Positions 7,226-47,127 of a DNA stretch of 64,000 nt are shown here, piece by piece. Location: positions 16,926 to 80,925 of the IMG/VR virus record IMGVR_UViG_3300039074_000056; one strand, written 5' to 3'. The DNA is from a virus. The notes beneath the pieces were generated by a model, which worked only from the letters and a program-made list of their open reading frames with translations, was not told the DNA's origin and did not search any database. Each line of letters opens with the position of its first letter. Positions within the stretch are counted from its first letter, which is position 1. Made by a program: the position numbers and the translations under genes.

Positions 7226-8440
7226 ATGTCGAACATTGCCGAAGGCATTCGCAAGAGTATCCGCTACAAGAAAGAAACAACTGCTGGCGTTCTCGCTGGC
7301 CCAACAGGAGCTAAGACTGTTCGCCGCGTAACTGGTGCGTTTAACTTAGCCAAAGAAGCCTACAACTCGGAAGAAGTGCGTGTTGACTACCAGATGGTAG
7401 ACTTCCGTCACGGTGTCCGTTCTGTTGAAGGAAGCCTTAACGGTGAATTATCCCCCGGTACTTACTCTGACTTTTTGGCATCTGCTGTAGCTCGTGATTT
7501 CACTGCTATTACTACAACATCGCCCGGCAGCGTCACTGTTGCTGGTACAGGCCCAACTTATACGATCTCTCGTGCAACAGGTAGTTACATCACCGACGGT
7601 ATTCGCCCCGGTATGGTTATTCGTTTCACTGGATTGACTGCTACTGCCGATAATAACAAAAATCTACTCGTCACTGCTGTTACTTCAGCAACAAGCATTA
7701 CCGTTGTTGCTCTGCAATCAATGGGCGGTATGACTGCTGGCACTACAGCAACAGGCGCTGCATTCACAGTTCCCGGTAAGGTAACTTATGCCCCATCCAC
7801 TGGTCACACAGATGACAGCTATACAATCGAAGAGTTCTACGAAGACATTGCTCAGTCAGAAGCTTTCGTAGGCTGCAAGGTTGGCAGTGCTAATATTCAG
7901 CTCCCAGCTACTGGCCTAGTGACCACTGACTTCTCCTTCATGGGTCTTGATCTAGGTCGTAGCGATACTACGCAGTATTTCACAAACGCAACTGCACAGG
8001 GTACTTCAGGCATCTTCGCTTCTGTCAACGGTGTTTTACTTGTTGATGGCTTACCAGTTGCTCTGGTTACTTCGCTGTCGATTTCGCTTGACCGTGGCCT
8101 TGCTTCTGAAGCCGTTGTTGGCAGCAATATTAAGCCTGAAATCTTTGAAGGTAAGATCATGGTGAGCGGTGAGTTTAGTACGCTGTTTTCTGACCGCGTA
8201 GTTTCCGATTACTTCGTGAATGAATCAGAAATCAGCTTAGTAGCTGCCCTGACTACATCGAATGCTAACAACTCTGACTTTATGACAATCACCTTACCTC
8301 GTATCAAAGTTAACTCCGATACCAAGGCTGACTCCACTGGTGCAATCGTTGCTTCTAACAGCTTCCAAGCCTTGAAGGGTACTGGCGCTGGCAACCAAGA
8401 AGTCACCACTATCCTGATTCACGACAGCCTAGCTGTCTAA
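7226..8440 (+). CDS. Major tail tube protein, with an inserted beta-rich domain
   Basis: Y.KETT.G, SEEVR.D, G.LNGELS, SYTIEE and LPRIK motifs; biased codon usage. Confidence 0.85.
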   Translation: MSNIAEGIRKSIRYKKETTAGVLAGPTGAKTVRRVTGAFNLAKEAYNSEEVRVDYQMVDFRHGVRSVEGSLNGELSPGTYSDFLASAVARDFTAITTTSPGSVTVAGTGPTYTISRATGSYITDGIRPGMVIRFTGLTATADNNKNLLVTAVTSATSITVVALQSMGGMTAGTTATGAAFTVPGKVTYAPSTGHTDDSYTIEEFYEDIAQSEAFVGCKVGSANIQLPATGLVTTDFSFMGLDLGRSDTTQYFTNATAQGTSGIFASVNGVLLVDGLPVALVTSLSISLDRGLASEAVVGSNIKPEIFEGKIMVSGEFSTLFSDRVVSDYFVNESEISLVAALTTSNANNSDFMTITLPRIKVNSDTKADSTGAIVASNSFQALKGTGAGNQEVTTILIHDSLAV

Positions 8441-8979: not shown

Positions 8980-9339
8980 ATGCAGGGCCGTCAAAAGGAC
9001 GGTGCTTCATTGCAGCAACACATGGAGAAGGCACAGGCTAGTCCCTTTGCCGCTCCCGCTTTAATTCAAGCGATTGAAGATGAAGCTGAGACAGCCCCCA
9101 TGCTTCCTGAAGCGGCTGCTTTTGTTTGGAGTTTCTTCTTGAAGCTTCATCAACAGCGTCCATCGGGAGGCATGGGGGTTTCTTGTTTGTCATTCACAGA
9201 TATAGATAGTTTCTGTCGTTTGACAAAGATGGAATTAGAAAGTTTTGAGCTAGATTTGATTCTGGCATTCGATAGATGTTTTTTGACAGTCTATTATGAA
9301 CAACAAGAGAAAGAGCAAAAAGCTCAAAACAAGAAATAA
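8980..9339 (+). CDS. Tail assembly chaperone, second part (gpT equivalent; probably made as a frameshift fusion)
   Basis: W.FFL.L...R..G.G...LSFTDI..F motif; no clear RBS of its own; lies in the -1 frame of the upstream gene. Confidence 0.75.
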   Translation: MQGRQKDGASLQQHMEKAQASPFAAPALIQAIEDEAETAPMLPEAAAFVWSFFLKLHQQRPSGGMGVSCLSFTDIDSFCRLTKMELESFELDLILAFDRCFLTVYYEQQEKEQKAQNKK

Positions 9340-9351
9340 TAAGAGGTGGGT

Positions 9352-10107
9352 ATGGTCGACATTGTAACTATTGGTTATAGGATTCAAACAGAAGGTCTCG
9401 CTCAAGCCAATAAGGAAATTGACGGTCTACTTAAAAAGAGTGATAAGTTAAATAATACTAAGGTTTCCCCAAAGACAGATTCCAAAGGTCTTGACGATGT
9501 TGCAAGAGCTTCTGCTAAGGCCACTAAAGAATTGTCTGTCCTGCAAAAACAGAAAGAGAACTTAGAGAAAGGCTTTAACAAGTCAACTAGCCTAGCTCTT
9601 GCCCGTATGCAAGTAGCTGGTGTTCCTCCTGCCACAATAGCAAGCTATGCTAATGCAAGAAAGCAAGTGGATGAACTTTCAAACAGCATGTCGCGACTTA
9701 GAGTATCCACTCAAGGTGGTTTAAGTTTAATCTCTGGTCTTGGTATTGGTCTTGGTACGGCGGTCTTTGGACAACTTGCCGTTGGTGTTGGTAAGTTAGC
9801 TGACAGCATGACGCTTCTTCAAGCCCGTATTAAGCTCGTCACACCAGTTACAGAAAACCTTAACGCTGTACAGCAAAGGTTGGTTGATACAGCCATTGCA
9901 ACAAGAACAGACCTCACCTCAACAATTACATTGTATAATCGACTTCAGCCAGCATTGTCTCGCTACGGTAAGACAACCTCGGAGGTACTGGATATTACAG
10001 AAGCATTTGGTAGAACACTTCTACTATCAGGTGCGAATACGCGAGAAGCAAGTGCTGCAATCCTACAGTTCTCTCAGGCTATGGGTAGCGGTAAACTTGC
10101 AGGTGAT
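9352..10107 (+). CDS. Tape measure protein, exon 1
   Basis: Tape-measure N-terminal domain (LLLSGA...AAILQFSQAMGSGKLAGD) cut in mid-motif; GAGG RBS before ATG 9352. Confidence 0.9.
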
Positions 10108-10360
10108 AGATAAATTTGTCACCCTACGGAGTAATTCGTAGCACAAACACTACCTAAAACGGGAAACTCCTTCAGGACAATCCGTTGCTAAATATAGAGC
10201 TAAAGCTCTATTAAATGCCCAACGACTAGCCGCAAGGCGTACACTCAAGTGAGTGGAAATGGTAGTCTCCCTTACGGGATGAAGATATAGTCTCATCTGC
10301 ATGGCAACATGCAGCAGCTTAATTGCGGCATAAGCCTAACGACCTTATGTGAAGATAAAG
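10108..10360 (+). ncRNA. Group I self-splicing intron (IA2-like), 253 nt, no internal ORF
   Basis: P1 GGUGAU/GUCACC with a U-G pair at the 5' splice site; P7 GACUA/UAGUC within AAGAUAUAGUC; P3, P4, P7.1, P7.2, P8 and P9 helices; terminal G at 10360; removal restores the frame. Confidence 0.93.
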
Positions 10361-13300
10361 GAATTTAGATCGGTAGCAGAAGCTGCACCAGCCTTGCTAG
10401 ATGCCTTAGCTAAAGGCGGTAATGTTGCTCGTGACTCACTAAAGAAAATGTCACAAGATGGTTTGTTGACAACAAAGTTCGTAGCTGATGCTTTGCAAAA
10501 GAGTATGCTTGATTTAATCGTTGCAACAGAAGGCATCCCAAAAACTGTTGGACAGGCATTTCAGAACTTGTCAACAGGCTTTCAATTTTTTATCGGGGAA
10601 CTGAATAAAACATACGGAATTACAGAAGGTCTTTCAGGTATTATCTCAGAACTAGCCTCTGGTATGGTTGGACTTGGTAAGTCACTTCAAGATGGCAAGT
10701 TTCAGGAAGTTACCAATAATCTGTTAATTATGACAGGTGTTATTGGTGGTGCTGCTACTGCATTTTACATTATGGATGCCGCTAACAAATCCGCTAATGT
10801 TAGTTTGTTAGAATATGTAAAGAACCTAAGAATTGCCACAGGCGCTCAAGCCTTGTTTAACATTGTTGCAGCAGCTAACCCTTATGTAATTCTAGCTGCA
10901 ACAATCATCGGTGTTGCAACAGCCCTCTACTCGATGCGTAATGCTACAGTGGAAGTTGGTGGCACTACTGTGAGCATTGGCTCGCTAATTGTTTCTACTT
11001 TTGAGTCTTTGAAAGAGCGTGTTGGAAGTGCCTTTATATTTATAACAGAATCTTACAAAAAGATTACCAAAGGACTGCAAGACGCTTTTGTTGGAATCTT
11101 TAATTTCCTTAAAGACACTATTGCAGGAAAGATTCTTGGTGCTTTGGTAGATGCTTTTACTAACACCCTGAAAGCTCTCGGACAAATTGGCATAAGATTC
11201 GCTAAGGCACTTGGTCTTGATAAGCTAACTGAGCAATTCAATGCTTTCGTATCTGATCTTGGGCAAGATATTGTCATTGGTGCAGTAGTAAGAGATAGCA
11301 AAGGCGCGAAGCCTGAAGCAGTTAATCCATTTTTGGGGGGTGGTGGCACAGCTACCGTAGTTGAAACCGAAGCCACTAAAAAGCTCCGCGAAGAAAGAGA
11401 ACGCCTTGCAGAACAGAACGCTGAGTTTCGCAAGAATTACTTAGCAGAAACTGCACTACTCCAAAGTGTTAATGATTTAATTGCACAGGGTTTGCCACTG
11501 AAAGAGGCTGAATTAGAAGCACAGAAGTTAGTTGACACTCAGAAGGCAATTTCTGCTGGACTAACTCAACTTCAAATTGACAAGCAATACGCTTTGCGTG
11601 ATGCTATTAAAGCAACTGCCGATGCTGAAAAAGCTCGCGAAGATCAAAAGAAATATCAAGATTCTGTTGATAAAGACTTTGCTAAAAACCAAGAAGCTTT
11701 TCTTAAACCAGAAGAGCTTAAAATTGGTGATTTGTTTGGTGATGCAAGCAAGGGTGCTGGCGCTTTAATCAATGCTTTTCAGGACATTAATAAACAGCAA
11801 GAGGCTTATAACGAACTTCTAGCTGACGCTGTTGTCAACAACAGAGATGTTACTGACATTGAAAAGCAAAGAGCTAAGAACGAACTCCGTAACATTGGCA
11901 ATATCCTCGGAGCTACTAAAGGATTCTTCAAAGAGAAGAGTGCTGGATACAAGGTATTGTCTGCTGCTGAAAAAGCCTACAAAGCTTTTGAGTTGGCATC
12001 TACAATCAAGAATTTTGCTATTGAGAAGGGACTGACGCTAGAAACTATTGGCATTAAGCTTTCTGGGTATGCCCAGACCGCTATTGCCGCTGTCTCAAGT
12101 GCAGGCACATCTATTGCGGCATTGCTTGGTATTGGCGCTACTGCCGGTGCTGTTGCTCCCGTAACAGCCGCTGCCGGAACACCCGGCCCTGCTGCGTTTG
12201 TTGCATTCGCTGCGATGGCTGCGCTTGTGGCTGCCGCCGGATTTGGCGGCTCAAAAACAAAAGGTTCTTTCGCGCCAACTAACGAAGGTACAGGTACAGT
12301 CTTTGGTGACAAGTCTGCTAAATCTGAAAGCATTAAACGCTCTATTGATTTGCTTGCTGAGAACTCTAAAATAGAGTTACCAATCACTTCTGCAATGCTG
12401 AGAAGCTTGCAGAATATTGAGTCTAATATTGGTGGTTTGACTAACCTTGTTATTCGTAAGGGGGCTGGCGAAGACCTAGCAAAAACCGTAAGCACAGGCT
12501 TCAAAGAAAGTGGACTAGGCAAGGGACTTCGCACCGCTGTAGGTATCGTAACTCTTGGAGCATCGGAGTTACTTGGTATTGGAAAGTTAATTGGTGGACT
12601 ATTTGGAACTAAAATTTCTATTAAAGGCCAAGGTCTCTTAGGTGAAGCGCAAAATCTATCCTCTATTACTTCGGAAGGTTTTAATCTTAGAGAATATGTA
12701 GATATAAACAAGAAGAAAAAATCTTTTGGTTTTACTACATCTAATAAGAACTCTACGAGAACCTCAGCAGCTTCCGATGAATTGGAAAGACAGTTTACCT
12801 TAATTTTTACTGGCTTTTACGATGCTATCAAACTGGCAGCCGTTCCCCTAGGTCAAAACCTAAATGATGTTACCTCTCGCCTAGACAACTTTGTTGTTAA
12901 GATCGGCAAGATTAACCTAAAAGGCTTAAAGGGTGAAGAAATCCAAGAGAAGTTAGAGGCTGTGTTTGGCGCTGCTGCTGATAGTATTGCACAAGCAGCT
13001 ATTCCGGGCTTAGAAGACTTCCAGAAAGTGGGTGAAGGGTATTTTGAAACTGTAGTTAGAGTATCTTCGGGCATTGAACAAGCAGCACAGGCTCTTGATT
13101 TGTTTGGTGTTACGGCAGTCAACTTCAAAGACATTATCTTAAAACAAGGTGATGTTGGAGCTGAAATTGTTAGACAATCCTTAGTTCTTGCCAACGGAGT
13201 TAGCGGAGTTTCTGAAATACTTAGCATTGCTTCAGTTGATAGTGTAGATGCTATTGTGGAGCTTGCTACTCAGTTGTACTCTCTTCGTGACAATGTTATT

Positions 13301-14260: not shown

Positions 14261-14262
14261 TT

Positions 14263-14296
14263 AATAGGGAATCTCCGGATTCCCTGTTATTCTTTT
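14263..14296 (+). terminator. Rho-independent terminator
   Basis: AATAGGGAATC-tccg-GATTCCCTGTT followed by ATTCTTTT. Confidence 0.75.
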
Positions 14297-16588: not shown

Positions 16589-17449
16589 ATGGCAAATGTA
16601 TTATTAGCTTGGCCTAATAGAATTGAAAAAGCTACATCTCTTACAGGTGGAAGTTATTTAGAGACATTACCACTAGCTAATGCTTCAAACAGAGTATTAG
16701 CTAAGAAAGCACGAACAACTGACACGCTGGAATCAAGTACAAGATTTGAGTGCACATTTAACGAAGGTCGTCCAGTGAATGTTGTAGCTATAGCTGCACA
16801 CAATTTAACAACGCAAGCAATGTGGCGAATTAGGTTGTATGCTGAATCAGCCAAGATTACTCTGGTTTACGACAGCGGAGAAATCCCTGTCTGGCCTGCT
16901 ATCTTCAACACAAGCGATCTTGAGTGGGAATATAATAACTGGTGGGAAGGTACTATTAGTGACGACGAAAGGACTAACTATACGCCACTAGCATCAAACA
17001 TAAGTACAAATCTTAATATTGCGCTTTCAATGGTTGTTGACATATTTGACTCCTCTAACCCAGATGGATATATCGAGTTTGGTAGAATCTTTATTGGAGA
17101 GTCCTTCCAGCCGACTATTAATATGAGGTATGGCGCACAGCTTGGCTATGAAGAAAACACGAATATTGAGTTAACACTTAGCAATAATGAATACTTTGAT
17201 GTAAAAACTCCTCGCCGCACCGCATCGTTTCAGCTTGATGGCTTATCTAAGGACGAGGCATTCACAAAAACTTATGTAATGCAAAGACAACAAGGAATCC
17301 ATTCAGAAGTATTCTTTTGCTATGACCCCGATATTGACCAAACAATGTATCTCAGGACATTCTTGGGCAGGTTAAAAAGCATTGACCCAATCTCTCAGCC
17401 TTATGTTGACAGGTATGAAACTTCATTCAATTTAATTGAAATATTATAA
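16589..17449 (+). CDS. Minor tail protein
   Basis: HNLT...NPDGYIEFGRIFIG...P.IN..YG motif; within the tail operon. Confidence 0.7.
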   Translation: MANVLLAWPNRIEKATSLTGGSYLETLPLANASNRVLAKKARTTDTLESSTRFECTFNEGRPVNVVAIAAHNLTTQAMWRIRLYAESAKITLVYDSGEIPVWPAIFNTSDLEWEYNNWWEGTISDDERTNYTPLASNISTNLNIALSMVVDIFDSSNPDGYIEFGRIFIGESFQPTINMRYGAQLGYEENTNIELTLSNNEYFDVKTPRRTASFQLDGLSKDEAFTKTYVMQRQQGIHSEVFFCYDPDIDQTMYLRTFLGRLKSIDPISQPYVDRYETSFNLIEIL

Positions 17450-34105: not shown

Positions 34106-34648
34106 CTAATCTCTTTTTGCACTTAACGCCTCCTTTACTTGCTCTCTTCGTAGCTTCTGATTAGAAGCTGGAACAACGCCATTGTCAATCAAAAATTGCT
34201 TGTCTTGCTTGTCTTTCATAATCTGAATCACTTTCTTCTCCACTATTGCTTCTTCGATACTTGTGCCATTCTTTTCAGCCAAGGTCTTAGCTTTATGGCA
34301 AGGCTTACAAAGAATAGCTAAGTCATCAAATGTAACACAAACAATACCTTCAATGAAAGCCTGTAAGTCAGATAACTGCCTAAGAGAATGCCCACCTTGA
34401 CGATGGTCAACCTCGATATCCTTCATCGGGAAGTCTTTGTTGCAAATCTCGCAAGTTGCTCCAAACACCTCCCTTAGCTTACCTCTTGGATTTGGATTTA
34501 CAATCTTCTTCTTGTGCTTCTTTAGAAACTCAAGTTTGATTGGCGACCTTGACCACAAGCTACGACGGATACCTCCACGCAAAAAACTCATAAAGCTACT
34601 TTCTGTTGCCCAGATGTGGCTGAATTCTTTCCAAGGTATTTTAGTCAT
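34106..34648 (-). CDS. HNH endonuclease (replication / recombination module)
   Basis: CEIC...EVDH...LCKPCH..KT motif. Confidence 0.8.
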   Translation of the reverse strand: MTKIPWKEFSHIWATESSFMSFLRGGIRRSLWSRSPIKLEFLKKHKKKIVNPNPRGKLREVFGATCEICNKDFPMKDIEVDHRQGGHSLRQLSDLQAFIEGIVCVTFDDLAILCKPCHKAKTLAEKNGTSIEEAIVEKKVIQIMKDKQDKQFLIDNGVVPASNQKLRREQVKEALSAKRD

Positions 34649-37226: not shown

Positions 37227-37817
37227 TTAGTTTAGTGTTCCGTGTCGATCTGTATAACCTGCACCACTATTGTTGAGAAGCTCGATCATTTCTTCTCTCC
37301 AATTCTTTGCCATCTCGAAAGCTTTGTCGTAACCAAGCTTTTCAATGTTAAAAGCCTTACTCCTAAGTTTGCCAGACAAGTCTACATAGTGTGCCGAAAA
37401 GTATTCGGCAGTCTTGCTCTTAAACTTCCTCGTAACAAGCCTAACCCCAGTCACGCCTGTTGTGTTTTTATCAAACTGCTTCCTGTTTCTGTTATTAACA
37501 GCCATAGAAACTAGCCGAAGATTTGAAATCTTATTATCACAAGAATCGCCATTAATGTGATCTATACACAAACCTTCTGGTATTTCCCCAAAAAACATTT
37601 CATAAATAACTCTGTGCACTGAATAAGTCTTAGACTTAAATCTTATTTTCCAATATCTCTTATCCCCTACGGTTCTTAGAGTTCCGGCAACATCTCCGAT
37701 GTCTCTTAAGTAATCCTTTCGCTTTGACATATTACTTGTCTTTAGCACAAGACCTGTAGGACTGTCCTCACTGTAAGCAACCCTATCAAATATTTCTTTA
37801 GGTATTTGTTTGGCCAT
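37227..37817 (-). CDS. HNH homing endonuclease
   Basis: HRVIY...IDHINGD..DN.ISNLR...N.RN motif; YTDRHG end. Confidence 0.88.
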   Translation of the reverse strand: MAKQIPKEIFDRVAYSEDSPTGLVLKTSNMSKRKDYLRDIGDVAGTLRTVGDKRYWKIRFKSKTYSVHRVIYEMFFGEIPEGLCIDHINGDSCDNKISNLRLVSMAVNNRNRKQFDKNTTGVTGVRLVTRKFKSKTAEYFSAHYVDLSGKLRSKAFNIEKLGYDKAFEMAKNWREEMIELLNNSGAGYTDRHGTLN

Positions 37818-37889
37818 CTTGATCAACACCATATTGAAGGCTTTGTGCTTCCATTTCTAGAAGCAATTCTGTTTCATCGGTCATATTCA

Positions 37890-38485: not shown

Positions 38486-40639
38486 TTATTGTACAATGTT
38501 TTGCTGGTTGGTGTCAATACATTCTTCAGAAATAATCAACTTATTTGCTTCAGAAATGTAATAGTCATAATCCAAATCCCACTTAAACTTTGTAATGTCG
38601 TTACAAGGTTTAACATTCCACTCTACATCAATACCAAGTCTACGAAGCTCACCGCCTTCCACAAGAGGAGGCATAATCTTAACCAATTTACCACCTTGTT
38701 TAGAAGGGTAGTAACGACAGATATTTTGTAGCTTTGCTTCAAAACCATCTTCATAAACCAATACCAAACTACTGCTACGAGGAACCTTTGTTCTCAACAT
38801 GAAATCATACTTGTCTTTATGATTCATAATATACTCTTCAACGGGTGTTCCATGTAACATAAAAGCCTCTACAGCCTTCGGTACAACGAGACAGGATTGG
38901 TTTTGATGCCAACCTAAACCTTCATACTCATAAGCACCTTTGCGTTTTACCTTACCGTTCGTATAAAGTGCAATATAATTATTTACATCTCTCACAAACA
39001 TAGCCGAGTAGTCCGCATACTCCAATTCAAGCTTTACATCCTTCTGCCACTTAGTACAAATCTCATCATACATCTCTTGATAAGCACTTGGGTACATCAC
39101 AGTAACGCCGTCTGTATTCACCTGAACAATCTCCAAATCAGGAATTGTCAAGAGTCTTTCAGCCAACATGCACAATGACAACTGCCCATTGATTGTCGTA
39201 ATCATAGTATATTGTGGGTCATAAAATGGACTATATTGGTTATTGCTATCGCCGTATACCCCATTCAAAGCCAATTTCATGACAGCGTTCTCTGGACTAT
39301 CTTTCGGATACATTTTACGCTGGTTGTAAACATCTTGGTAAATGTCACAAAACTTAGCTGTCAAATGCAAAGGATAAACTCTGTTAGAGATAGCAATGTT
39401 TGGATACATGGAAGCCACATCAGCATCTTTCAACGTCCAACCTTCTTTAGCTCTAACAATCTTTGACTCAACACTACCATGAATACCGCCAGTACCAAAG
39501 TCAAAGCGAAATCCATTTACAACAACATTCAATGTCTCAGCAACTTTCCAACAACCCCAATAGCTGATCTTGTGAACCTTTGTTTTCACGCCATCAACCA
39601 ATACGGTGTAAGTAGCTTTAAGCTCTTGCTCTTCAATCCAACCCATAGGATGTTCTTCTTTGAATCGCTTCGCCTCTTCCTCAGTTGGTTTGTCCTTAAA
39701 CTTCTTGCGCTTCACCACCACTTCTGCATACTTAGCAACATCACCAAGATTGTGCTCTTCTACATCGCTGAATACTCCCTTTGTCTCTGTAATCTTTTGA
39801 TTACGAAACCATTCCAAAATTGCAACAAATGCTGGTTGTTGGAAGTCATAGTAGTCAAACAAACAATCGCGGATATTAATAACCTTTCGCTTAGTTTGAT
39901 TCAATACTCGCTTTGGGCCTTGCATTTTATAACAACTTCCGGGCATAGCATTTTCAAGCTTATTAATGAAGTAGTCCTTACCTACCTTAGTATCATTGTG
40001 ATTGGTGAAGTCAATACCAAAACTAATACCAAGCTTCTCACGGAAACGAATTGCATCCAGAGAAGCACGATAGAAGTCAAGAGTCATTTTAACATCATGC
40101 TCGTTATACTGAATGAGAACATCAATCTCCTCATCTGTCAGAATCTTACCAACAGGAAAAGGGAGGTCTTCAATGTTATCAGACTTCATATTGAACTCAA
40201 GCATCTTCAACGATGTAGAACGAGCCTTGTTGTCAAAGTGATGAATCTTATACAAATCTACTTGCTTAATCATAACATCGGAGGTAGGAATTGTGTGACC
40301 AAACCCTTCACCCTTAAAACTTTCAATCTGTTTCATTGCCACTTTGTAAATAGCCTTAGCGTCCATAACATATTCTTCATCAATCTTCTTAGCCAGAATT
40401 GCTTCTGACAGAATATGGTGGAGAACAGGATAGTCAAATCCTAAATTGTTAAAACCTACCATCCTGCACTTGTTAGACTTCAAGTAACGCAAGCAATGAA
40501 GAATCTCTGAGGTTTGATTCTTGCGATCACTTACCTCAAAAGTTTTCTTGTGACGACCATCAGAGTGAATGATGGAGAATGTGAAAACATTAGGGTATGT
40601 TTCCAAGTCGTAAATATAGTCTTTCTCAATAAAATCCAC
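38486..40639 (-). CDS. Family B DNA polymerase with 3'-5' exonuclease domain
   Basis: Exonuclease motifs YDLE, FN..FD and YN.HDV; polymerase motifs DVASMYP, K..LNG.YG and NTDG; GTG start after AGGAG. Confidence 0.92.
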   Translation of the reverse strand: MDFIEKDYIYDLETYPNVFTFSIIHSDGRHKKTFEVSDRKNQTSEILHCLRYLKSNKCRMVGFNNLGFDYPVLHHILSEAILAKKIDEEYVMDAKAIYKVAMKQIESFKGEGFGHTIPTSDVMIKQVDLYKIHHFDNKARSTSLKMLEFNMKSDNIEDLPFPVGKILTDEEIDVLIQYNEHDVKMTLDFYRASLDAIRFREKLGISFGIDFTNHNDTKVGKDYFINKLENAMPGSCYKMQGPKRVLNQTKRKVINIRDCLFDYYDFQQPAFVAILEWFRNQKITETKGVFSDVEEHNLGDVAKYAEVVVKRKKFKDKPTEEEAKRFKEEHPMGWIEEQELKATYTVLVDGVKTKVHKISYWGCWKVAETLNVVVNGFRFDFGTGGIHGSVESKIVRAKEGWTLKDADVASMYPNIAISNRVYPLHLTAKFCDIYQDVYNQRKMYPKDSPENAVMKLALNGVYGDSNNQYSPFYDPQYTMITTINGQLSLCMLAERLLTIPDLEIVQVNTDGVTVMYPSAYQEMYDEICTKWQKDVKLELEYADYSAMFVRDVNNYIALYTNGKVKRKGAYEYEGLGWHQNQSCLVVPKAVEAFMLHGTPVEEYIMNHKDKYDFMLRTKVPRSSSLVLVYEDGFEAKLQNICRYYPSKQGGKLVKIMPPLVEGGELRRLGIDVEWNVKPCNDITKFKWDLDYDYYISEANKLIISEECIDTNQQNIVQ

Positions 40640-40656
40640 TCTGTTCTCCTTTAATT

Positions 40657-42390
40657 TTACCAATCAACCCTTTCTGGAACTCCATCAGGGAAGTATTCTA
40701 ACTTGTTGTGCAACATGTGACTACCATTGTCATAGTAGTAATCACCGGCATGTCCGGTGTTGCCTGACCATCGACATTTGCTCATAATAATGTGAGTAGT
40801 ATTCTTTTCAATAGGGTCGTCAGCATACTTATTTCGTGTCATAAGGATGTTAGCCCCAGCACTCTTAAAAATGCTACTACTACCTTGAAAATCTTCTTCA
40901 CTAATCCATGCACCAGCACTATTAGCTTGGCTACCCACTTGATTCTTTCGAGTATGGTTTACATTAAAGAATGTCACACCATGACTCTTAACGAAGCTCT
41001 TTTGCCAGCGCATAAACAATGATTGATCTTCGTTGCTTAAACCATCAAGCAAATCTTGAAGTGGGTCAATCATAATAATACGACAGCCACAAGATACTAC
41101 AAGTTCCTCAATCACAGTCTTTACATTGTCAATACTACCATCTCGATCATCAAGCAAATGGAATCGGTTTTCACCGTTCTCCGTTGTGAACAACTCCTTA
41201 GCCTTCTGCTTAACAAAATCTGTTTTCAGGTAGTCCATCTTTTCTTCTGTATCTTTCATTAGAGCAATCTTTTTCTGTAAGTGGCGAGATAACAACACTT
41301 CACCATACTGACCGCAATCAAGCTCTAATGATACTACTCCCACAAGGTATTGACTATTGAAAATCCAATGATAAAGAATCTCATTGATAATACTTGTCTT
41401 ACCTGTACCTGATGCACTACCAAAGTTTACAATATATCCTAGTGGGATACCACCCGCCATCATCTCCTGCAACTGCGACATAAATGGCGGCAATGGAATC
41501 TTAACAGTATTTGCATTCTCCAATACACGATCATACAAATCACCACTACCAACTACGCCAACAGGCATGTGTTTCTTAGCTGCATAGAAGTCGCTAACAA
41601 ATCGCTTAGTCTCATTCTCTACCAAGTATTCATTAGGGTCTTTCTTTGTCCACTCAGCAATATAAACTTTACCTTTTGGAAGGAATGGAATAATTTTCTC
41701 AGCACCTTCCTTACCTGCATCATCTGAATCAAAGCCAATAATAATTCGTTCAAAGCGATTGAAGAAGTTAAATTGTGCCTGAATCTGCTTACCGCAACCG
41801 CTTTCACCCACTGTAGGGGAGACAACTGCTACAGCGTCATACTCACCATTACCACGGGAGATTTGATAATCACGAAGCATCTGGTATGCACTAAGAGCAT
41901 CAATTTCACCGCCTACAATTAAACAATCACGACTCTTACTTCCCTTAAAACGGAACTGACCAAAAAGGTCACATTCCATACCTGTCAGACCAATACTACC
42001 GCCAAAAGTCTTTGGTAGGGTGCGTGGTTTATATCCAGAAAGACTATTCTTAATTGTTGTAGGGCAATACTGCTTTACTGGTTGACCATCTACCATCTCA
42101 TAACGAACGCCAAAGAACTTATGCGTCTCTTTGCGAATACCACGATATTCAATGTTAAAAGTAGTATTTGTTTTGATTTCTGAATTTTGTTCATCTGTAA
42201 TCTTTGGCTTATCTGTCTTTACTTGTTCTACCACTGCACTACTCCTCTTCTTAGCTACTGTTTCGTTATATCCACAAGCAAAGCAATGGGCGCTGTTGTC
42301 TTGATAGCGAACAAGATTGTCTCCGCTGGTATCATTACCTCGCTCACTGCACTCTGGACATTGTTCTTTTCGTAATACAACTCCACCCAT
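40657..42390 (-). CDS. Primase-helicase (T7 gp4-like)
   Basis: Zn finger CPEC...HCFAC; TOPRIM GEIDA...FDSD...KDPNE; Walker A SGTGKT; IDP and H.RK motifs. Confidence 0.92.
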   Translation of the reverse strand: MGGVVLRKEQCPECSERGNDTSGDNLVRYQDNSAHCFACGYNETVAKKRSSAVVEQVKTDKPKITDEQNSEIKTNTTFNIEYRGIRKETHKFFGVRYEMVDGQPVKQYCPTTIKNSLSGYKPRTLPKTFGGSIGLTGMECDLFGQFRFKGSKSRDCLIVGGEIDALSAYQMLRDYQISRGNGEYDAVAVVSPTVGESGCGKQIQAQFNFFNRFERIIIGFDSDDAGKEGAEKIIPFLPKGKVYIAEWTKKDPNEYLVENETKRFVSDFYAAKKHMPVGVVGSGDLYDRVLENANTVKIPLPPFMSQLQEMMAGGIPLGYIVNFGSASGTGKTSIINEILYHWIFNSQYLVGVVSLELDCGQYGEVLLSRHLQKKIALMKDTEEKMDYLKTDFVKQKAKELFTTENGENRFHLLDDRDGSIDNVKTVIEELVVSCGCRIIMIDPLQDLLDGLSNEDQSLFMRWQKSFVKSHGVTFFNVNHTRKNQVGSQANSAGAWISEEDFQGSSSIFKSAGANILMTRNKYADDPIEKNTTHIIMSKCRWSGNTGHAGDYYYDNGSHMLHNKLEYFPDGVPERVDW

Positions 42391-46410: not shown

Positions 46411-47127
46411 GTGGAGCAAGCCAAGCAAGTAGTGTACCTAATGAAAAACAGTATGTCTTTATATAAGATAGGCATTAGCGTAGACCCTAAGAGAAGGTGT
46501 AACGACATACGACTGGCTTCTGGCATTCATACAGAAATATTAAAGACATTTGATACAACAAACGAAGCAAGGCTAGTAGAGCAATCTCTGCACAGGCACT
46601 TTTCTTCAAAAAGAAAAGAAGGAGAATGGTTTCGTCTTACTAAAGAAGATTTGCAAGACATTGCAAAAACAGTAGCTCAGGTGGATTTTGCCATAACAGA
46701 CGGCATAAACAATGTTGCCAGTTCAGCAGAAGAGTTGACTGTTGAAGAGTTGTTTAACTTTATTGCCTCTTTCGGTTTGCCGGAAGACTTTACAGTAAGT
46801 GACTGTCAAAGATTGTGGGATTCTCAGGTGGCTTTCTTTAAGTGCCTTCTTTCTGTATCTAATACAAAGTTTCGTCAGCTTTTAGAGATGTTGTTGGATA
46901 GGGGATACCATGTTAGTGAAAATATTTGTAATATAGATGAAAGAAAACCATTTTGGGCAGGGGTTACTTTTTGCTCTTTCGTTATTGAGTATTATCCCGT
47001 GGTTCCAAAAAATCTTTTAGGAAATGTTTCATCCGTATACAAATACGAAACTGCTAAGAGGATGTATGAAGAATACTTTCAACACTGCTCCAAGTACAAA
47101 ATAGAACCTATGGAGATAACAAAATGA
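46411..47127 (+). CDS. T5orf172/MUG113-type GIY-YIG domain protein
   Basis: VYLM...YKIGIS.DP.RR...E..LH..F...R..GEWF.L motif. Confidence 0.8.
   Translation: MEQAKQVVYLMKNSMSLYKIGISVDPKRRCNDIRLASGIHTEILKTFDTTNEARLVEQSLHRHFSSKRKEGEWFRLTKEDLQDIAKTVAQVDFAITDGINNVASSAEELTVEELFNFIASFGLPEDFTVSDCQRLWDSQVAFFKCLLSVSNTKFRQLLEMLLDRGYHVSENICNIDERKPFWAGVTFCSFVIEYYPVVPKNLLGNVSSVYKYETAKRMYEEYFQHCSKYKIEPMEITK

Follow-up and report, generated by a model that had tools for sequence, protein, structure and literature searches.

The phage tape-measure gene has been called "frequently interrupted" (Barth, Dunham and Seed 2023; PMC10448857), and in the Vibrio cholerae phage ICP1 its transcript was found by RNA sequencing (RNA-seq) and reverse transcription PCR (RT-PCR) to be made up of four exons separated by three introns; an HNH-3 gene is usually present in the middle intron alone, the other two being usually empty. 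Group I introns designated TMP-IVS1, IVS2 and IVS3 were described at three tape-measure sites in prophages of the Bacillus cereus group (Tourasse and Kolsto 2008; PMC2504315), where they belong to the types IA2 and IA1, in some cases lack a complete endonuclease gene, and are patchily distributed among related and unrelated phages. Introns are also on record in capsid and tail genes of Cluster J mycobacteriophages (PMC3706429) and in terminase genes of Shewanella phage KASIA (PMC8541194), and the collaborative homing of introns without an open reading frame (ORF) by free-standing endonucleases has been described (Bonocora and Shub 2009; Zeng, Bonocora and Shub 2009, as summarised in PMC10448857). 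The present study concerns an interruption of the tape-measure gene in a 64,000-nt stretch of viral DNA, positions 16,926 to 80,925 of the IMG/VR record IMGVR_UViG_3300039074_000056 (hereafter the window, to which all coordinates refer unless another record is named). An initial annotation, made from the letters alone, had interpreted this interruption as a group I intron.

Position of the intron and the splice junction

The segment 10108-10360 of the window, 253 nt long and ending with G10360, is, with a probability of roughly 0.93, a genuine group I intron of td-like (IA) type that has no endonuclease gene and splits the TMP_3 domain of a siphovirus tape-measure gene. The parts of the gene and of the intron are as follows.

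9352..10107, + strand: tape-measure exon 1, 252 codons from ATG 9352, recognised by the TMP_3 domain and by homologs
10102-10107, + strand: 5' strand of helix P1, GGUGAU, i.e., the last six exon 1 bases, within the Rfam P1 columns
10112..10123, + strand: internal guide sequence, AAAUUU 10112-10117 (P10 strand) followed by GUCACC 10118-10123 (3' strand of P1)
10149..10266, + strand: first part of the catalytic core with P3, P4, P5, P6/P6a, the 5' strand of P7, P7.1 and P7.2, all fully paired
10268..10314, + strand: 3' part of the core with P8, the 3' strand of P7 and P9
10361..14260, + strand: tape-measure exon 2, 1299 codons plus stop, translated without an internal stop

Exon 1 closes with GGT GAT at 10107 and is followed by AGA TAA (stop at 10111-10113), and the frame reopens with GAA TTT at 10361 as EFRSVAEAAP. 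The insertion point lies between the Asp and Glu codons of the most conserved TMP_3 motif, ...SGKLAGD-EFRS..., just where the initial annotation had seen the motif break off and resume, and both the sequence and the reading frames agree with this placement. The profile of TMP_3 (PF20155; cut-off 41 bits) is matched by exon 1 residues 150-254, numbered from GTG 9346, at profile positions 5-109 (98.3 bits), and by exon 2 residues 1-83 at positions 110-192 (60.6 bits), the domain being cut cleanly in two between positions 109 and 110 with nothing lost.

The comparison with intron-less homologs, which had been suggested as a check of the junction, gave contiguous sequence throughout. An uninterrupted homolog of 1557 amino acids (P0004), encoded on a 21-kb metagenome contig, crosses the junction as QFSQAMGSGKLAGDEFRSVAEAAPALLDALAKGGNVARDSLK; its residues 5-252 are 65% identical to exon 1 and its residues 253-1548 are 68% identical to exon 2 over 1303 columns, D252 being aligned with exon 1 D254 (GTG 9346 numbering) and E253 with exon 2 E1. 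Additionally, 42 distant tape-measure loci were taken from IMG/VR, two of which (L044 and L046) had no match to the tail of exon 1 and were left out of the count. In all of the other 40, the exon 2 motif follows the exon 1 match directly and in the same frame, and the residues after G-D/E are E-F/Y/L/M...; an exon 2 match was scored in 24 of these loci, with a gap of 0, and a further 14 stay open for at least 100 codons. In-frame stops unrelated to the site occur 47 codons past the motif in L022 (near 3460) and 6 codons past it in L027 (3483-3504). The latter locus reads sensibly beyond its stop (EFNAVN, stop, ASPKLMQYL), which could reflect a sequencing error, a pseudogene or stop-codon recoding.

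The predicted junction between 10107 and 10361 (GGTGAT joined to GAATTT) is set by three independent lines: Pfam, the intron-less homolog and the distant relatives. Note that no shifted pair of splice sites gives the same mRNA, because base 10108 differs from 10361 and 10107 from 10360. As to the beginning of the gene, the mechanically derived ORF 9346..10113 starts exon 1 at GTG 9346; ATG 9352 is the likely start codon, because an AAGAGG ribosome-binding site lies 5 nt 5' of it, the database gene call of the window exon 1 is 253 amino acids long, and the homolog P0033 has the N-terminus MVDIVTIGY. Counted from this ATG, the spliced product has 252 + 1299 = 1551 amino acids, the same figure as proposed initially for a single ORF. 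The expectation that standard annotation would report two genes is also correct, since gene callers give exactly such a pair, P0031 (253 amino acids) and P0003 (1303 amino acids).

Ribozyme model and fold

A full-length match to the Rfam group I intron family RF00028 (model positions 1-253) was obtained at 10098-10314 with 76.0 bits (E 1.6e-17), well over the gathering score of 50 bits, so that this search, itself proposed in the initial annotation, bears out the view that these 253 nt fold as a group I ribozyme. No other Rfam family was found in the scan of the 64-kb window, and the whole 80,925-bp genome gave a single RF00028 match, at the tape-measure gene. The single-strand fold of 10096-10372 has a free energy of -81.1 kcal/mol against -61.8 ± 4.75 for shuffled sequences (z = -4.06), and none of the 200 shuffles folded as well as the native segment. 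Without constraints, the fold recovers P1, P2, P3, P4-P6, P7.1, P7.2, P8 and P9; the P7 pseudoknot is not recovered.

When the helices named in the initial annotation (P1, P10, P3, P4, P7, P7.1, P7.2, P8 and P9) were checked by coordinate, every one of them paired in full. In P1, GGUGAU and GUCACC (10102-07/10118-23) form 6/6 pairs with the U10107-G10118 wobble at the 5' splice site, and the helix is extended by three further base pairs into the intron; P10 is formed by AAAUUU (10112-17) and GAAUUU of exon 2 (10361-66), also 6/6. Both P2 and P6a pair 7/7. Within the core, P3 (10149-54/10261-66) and P4 (10158-63/10181-86) pair 6/6, P7 (10224-28 with UAGUC 10288-92) 5/5, P8 (10268-71/10276-79) 4/4 and P9 (10297-10303/10308-14) 7/7. 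The hairpins P7.1 (GCC-GCAA-GGC, 10229-38, 3/3) and P7.2 (CACUC-AAGU-GAGUG, 10242-55, 5/5) appear in the Rfam alignment as an insertion after P7. The run GAUGAAGAUAUAGUC within 10268..10314 is identical to the Rfam consensus at every letter. The conserved core of a group I intron is thus present from P3 to P8, including the P4-P6 domain and the pseudoknot of P3 and P7.

No endonuclease gene was found inside the intron, the longest stop-free stretch in the six frames being 61 codons. The 253-nt intron is therefore too small for such a gene, the endonuclease-like genes of the same genome encoding 180-238 amino acids, and it lacks any means to move by itself.

Kinship with the td and nrdD introns of T4-like phages

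In a BLAST comparison with named phages, the td introns of T4-like phages were nearest to the window intron (71.5% identity over 83% of its length), and the T4 nrdD introns showed 71% identity over 68%. The best match was found in Escherichia phage vB_vPM_PD112, whose td intron of about 250 nt has no ORF and is colinear with the window intron from P3 to the terminal G at a mean column identity of 80%, flanks included. The two share the 3' end ...UAACGACCUUAU.UGAA.AUAA.G, where the dots are three differing positions, and the terminal G10360 that had been recognised initially is aligned with the G that closes the td intron. Differences between the two sequences are compensatory in P3, P4, P7.1, P7.2 and P8.

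The window intron thus resembles the PD112 td intron in having P7.1 and P7.2, in its similar size of about 250 nt and in the lack of an ORF. At the same time, its P1, P2 and guide sequence are wholly different from those of the td and nrdD (sunY) introns, whose host genes encode thymidylate synthase or anaerobic ribonucleotide reductase rather than a tape measure and which belong to another phage family. The T4 record itself labels the nrdD intron "group 1A". As to the subgroup IA2 that had been proposed, a T4 td-like IA type with P7.1 and P7.2 is upheld by the comparison; the name IA2, the designation of the td type attributed to Michel and Westhof (1990), is probable, the assignment following from the hairpins P7.1 and P7.2 and the homology to td.

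Distribution among relatives and signs of movement

Protein searches covering about 5.8 billion sequences brought up very few close relatives; they gave 28 matches for exon 2 at E ≤ 0.001 and four for exon 1, one in each set being the window's own protein. Two of the exon 2 homologs begin with MKIKEFRS (P0005) and MKVREFRS (P0006), i.e., they are read out from the same intron end, and their gene calls start within the last 12 intron bases, like that of P0003 in the window. Conversely, the exon 1 homologs P0032 and P0033 end with ...GKLAGDRQICHP(T/V)K, a read-in to the intron: the window intron start is translated as D-R-stop-I-C-H-P-T, and in both relatives the stop is replaced by a sense codon. 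Because these C-terminal peptides match the window intron start, the same P1/P2 sequence follows exon 1 in P0032 and P0033. The introns of these four genes, located on four contigs of differing size, are known from the read-in and read-out peptides only. Together with the window, at least five genes have the intron at this site, and their proteins are 56-72% identical to that of the window.

Closely similar genes may have or lack the intron: the intron-less P0004 and the intron-bearing P0032 are 95% identical in exon 1 (237/249). A second sign is the discontinuity of identity at the intron ends. A plankton-metagenome contig (X3 record 7) is 98% identical to 10099-10362, differing without gaps at 6 of the 264 nt, and the 200 bases upstream of the match are unlike the window, although the 30 adjoining bases encode F-A-Q-A-L-A-S-G-K-L, the tape-measure motif, with 17 of the 30 shared with the window by hand count. 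On the other side, X3 record 10 runs past 10371 as ...I-S-E-A-S, with 9/16 bases shared (hand count). The intron differences in X3 fall in the P6a loop or the 3' tail or keep the pairing, as C10238U does by giving a G-U pair in P7.1. Moreover, a 672-nt wastewater contig (X5 record 15) matches 10260-10639 with 29 differences, of which two listed ones (10335 and 10336) are located in the last 101 intron bases and about 27 in the 279 exon 2 bases (about 90% identity), where the listed differences are nearly all at third codon positions counted from 10361. The 292 nt of this contig upstream of 10260 have no match to the window at ≥ 85%, and the intron of this relative may differ, or be larger, in its 5' half.

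An Rfam scan of distant IMG/VR tape-measure loci (L002-L033 and L038-L045) found a group I intron in 0/40; an alignment-guided locus search returned three distant metagenome loci and ten IMG/VR loci, all intron-less. In IMG/VR, neither the exact 21-nt P3-P4 pattern nor a degenerate pattern of the intron end and exon 2 was found, and a 22-nt P1 pattern had no match in JGI/ENA metagenome contigs, a pattern that, as deduced, misses the CAA-for-TAA variant of the P1 loop in the relatives. The tape-measure gene of Pseudomonas phage PSV3 (NC_069755.1, L048 1501-2278) was considered as a same-site insertion and rejected, since what it has is no intron but a 121-nt segment repeated in tandem, the frame changing between the copies. 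This gene is annotated as three ORFs, and its TMP_3 motif LLQLSQGFNAGKLQGDEFRAVSENMPIVLDAVAKALNV occurs twice in tandem in two frames, as a result of duplication or assembly error.

An intron much better conserved than its exons is the usual mark of horizontal transfer. Among the features of mobile introns, an internal homing endonuclease gene was not found, and both the patchy presence and an intron better conserved than the exons were. Because the window intron combines this conservation with presence and absence among near-identical genes, the pattern carries the usual signature of an intron that was recently moved or lost, i.e., of recent horizontal gain or precise loss. It could be argued that inheritance was purely vertical within a small clade, with one precise loss in the lineage of P0004 and no ongoing horizontal movement, and several observations agree with this: the five intron-bearing genes from the protein searches are each other's closest relatives, the intron is absent from the site in the 40 more distant loci, and neither in nor beside the intron is there an endonuclease gene. 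Against it stand the nearly unchanged intron of X3 between strongly diverged flanks, the similar contrast between intron and exon 2 in X5 record 15, and the 95% identity of P0032 and P0004, and we regard a wholly vertical history as unlikely, if by no means far-fetched.

A wider proposal is that horizontal spread of this td-like ORF-less intron continues today between the diverged tape-measure genes of aquatic phages. Its target would be a short G-D/E-E-F motif of TMP_3, where the intron cluster of ICP1 is found as well and which would serve as a general landing site across unrelated tailed phages; the spread would be due to nucleases encoded elsewhere or to reverse splicing, and not to an endonuclease of the intron itself. 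We put it forward tentatively, with a chance of being right that falls a little short of even.

Genome context

The virus record is complete (80,925 bp with 107-bp terminal repeats), and its genes are arranged as in the morphogenesis module of a siphovirus. Terminase and portal genes are located just upstream of the window, followed by genes for a protease, a decoration protein and a lambda-E-type capsid protein, then by those for the tail terminator, the tail tube (7226-8437) and a chaperone (8980-9336), the split tape-measure gene and the distal tail genes. Straight after the tape-measure stop, at 14262-14289 (+), there is a 12-bp hairpin with a T-rich run, terminator-like and inside the tail module. 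The genes of this genome for ribonucleotide reductase subunits, ThyX and DNA polymerase, which are classic intron targets, are uninterrupted.

A megablast search with the tape-measure gene against named phages gave no match. In capsid protein and DNA polymerase, the closest cultured phages, with an amino-acid identity of 50-57%, are Curvibacter phage P26059A, Limnohabitans phage DC31 and Nitrincola phage 1M3-16, and since these nearest cultured phages infect Proteobacteria, the host is likely to be proteobacterial. The DNA polymerase gene (38489-40663, -) encodes a 725-amino-acid protein with no Pfam match at E ≤ 0.001 and 50-60% identity to annotated phage DNA polymerases; it matches Acinetobacter phage phiAB441 in three pieces and Pseudomonas phage phiPMW in two, so these genes may be interrupted there.

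The endonuclease-like genes of the genome lie in the replication module, and none is near the tape-measure gene:

37230..37832, - strand: free-standing HNH_3+AP2 endonuclease gene (Pfam HNH_3 64.7 bits, AP2 23.6 bits)
34109-34648, - strand: weak HNH gene (Pfam)
46411-47124, + strand: T5orf172/MUG113 gene (Pfam)
L034 6356-7111, - strand: weak AP2-only protein

The first of these genes is located just downstream of the DNA polymerase gene, a spot typical for free-standing homing endonucleases. It is a candidate for a trans-acting nuclease, and nothing ties its target to the tape-measure site.

Proposed splicing pathway and alternative explanations

In group I chemistry, a guanosine cofactor attacks the 5' splice site, and the freed 3'-OH of exon 1 then attacks after the terminal G of the intron. 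Within the late tail-gene transcript of the window, the guide GUCACC would pair with GGUGAU at the end of exon 1, and an external guanosine would attack after U10107; the guide AAAUUU would then align GAAUUU of exon 2, and the exon 1 3'-OH would attack after G10360, joining GGUGAU to GAAUUU. The spliced message would yield one tape measure of 1551 amino acids, whereas unspliced RNA would give only the 253-amino-acid fragment, which is terminated at the second intron codon, the UAA of the P1 loop. Because of this stop and because no ribosome-binding site is visible for exon 2, the full-length tape measure, and hence tail formation, should depend on splicing. For the spread of the intron, the likeliest route would be recombination or gene conversion between co-infecting phages, possibly begun by a nuclease encoded elsewhere. 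The two proposals of the initial annotation, that tail assembly depends on splicing and that the intron would need a nuclease supplied in trans to spread, are thus reasonable. We infer catalysis, splicing in vivo and this route of spread.

Some points weigh against a functional intron. GTG 10349 is in frame just 5' of exon 2, so exon 2 may be translated separately; no RNA dataset was found among the sequencing runs that contain this DNA, which says nothing on expression; and the four runs compared consist of contigs, with no joint across 10108-10360. A decayed, non-catalytic remnant would leave two polypeptides assembling non-covalently, one from exon 1 to the UAA at 10111-10113 and the other from this GTG, much as the gene callers have it with P0031 and P0003. 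Several observations make such decay highly improbable. The score of 76 bits is as high as that of the first ICP1 tape-measure intron (77.9 bits), and splicing of the ICP1 tape-measure transcript was verified by RT-PCR (PMC10448857). All core helices are intact, P1 and P10 fit the present exon ends exactly, and near-identical copies differ in loops only or by a G-U-compatible change. The break, moreover, interrupts the TMP_3 domain midway, reading by eye shows no purine-rich site before GTG 10349, and the genome record is complete with its terminal repeats.

The last possibility, that the intron of another phage was chimerically joined into the contig during assembly, is practically negligible: the window is indeed a metagenome assembly, and conserved cores are common to many phages in such samples, many short contigs matching 10277-10314 only, but a separate 80,848-nt Logan contig (which may be from the same sample) covers 9600-10900 with 0 differences, the same interruption is present on four other contigs of differing size, and P1 and P10 are complementary to these very exon ends.

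A td-like group I intron in the tape-measure gene is accordingly preferred here over both of these accounts. Its practical meaning is that automatic gene calling splits the tape-measure gene in this genome and in at least four relatives, and because of this split, estimates of tail length and the protein clustering of such phages are wrong unless introns are sought. What is new is a td-like ribozyme whose target has become a tape-measure gene, in an uncultured phage that probably infects a proteobacterium, a clear pattern of presence, absence and identity discontinuity for an endonuclease-less intron, and the coincidence of its site, within one codon, with that of ICP1. The near-identical copy in a diverged gene suggests that endonuclease-less introns do move between phages, and a modest biological point is that group I introns have landed repeatedly at the conserved TMP_3 motif. 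No new question is opened by the case.

Comparison with published phage introns

Group I introns of tape-measure genes are already known, and the window intron is real but ordinary; its kind is not new, because it has been published in Bacillus prophages (PMC2504315) and in ICP1 (PMC10448857). The latter example also runs counter to the statement of the initial annotation that structural-gene introns are known mainly from phages of Gram-positive hosts, as ICP1, a phage of Vibrio cholerae, has three tape-measure introns verified by RT-PCR.

In the ICP1 record NC_015157, the TMP_3 match at profile positions 2-108 ends at base 41969, and the open frame ends with ...LSKNQVMA. The start of the RF00028 match (77.9 bits), at 41978, overlaps the final bases of the exon, and three weaker RF00028 matches follow, TMP_3 resuming at profile position 114 (base 40171). 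Since exon 1 ends at profile position 108 in ICP1 and at 109 in the window, the first ICP1 intron and the window intron lie within one codon of each other, and the remaining ICP1 introns are, by the same profile coordinates, packed within the next few codons. Both introns are of group I and interrupt the TMP_3 domain of a tape-measure gene, and both phages have a Gram-negative host, probably so for that of the window. The differences are nevertheless considerable. ICP1, a myovirus of another lineage, has three introns and two micro-exons in about 1.8 kb, usually with one HNH-3 gene, against a single 253-nt intron with none in the window; its ribozyme is enlarged by long insertions, one of them in P5 and another after P7, whereas that of the window is compact and td-like. 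Splicing in ICP1 was demonstrated by RNA-seq and RT-PCR, and that of the window gene is predicted from DNA sequence.

The Bacillus TMP introns have in common with the window intron a P1 and guide adapted to the site, a location in a conserved part of the host gene and a patchy distribution, and differ from it in being found in Gram-positive hosts and in integrated prophages. With the cases of collaborative homing, the window has in common that a nuclease-less intron occurs in the same genome as free-standing nuclease genes, here of the HNH_3-AP2 and T5orf172 types; in the published examples, however, the nuclease genes adjoin the intron-bearing gene, whereas here the nearest candidate is about 23 kb off, with no link to the site.

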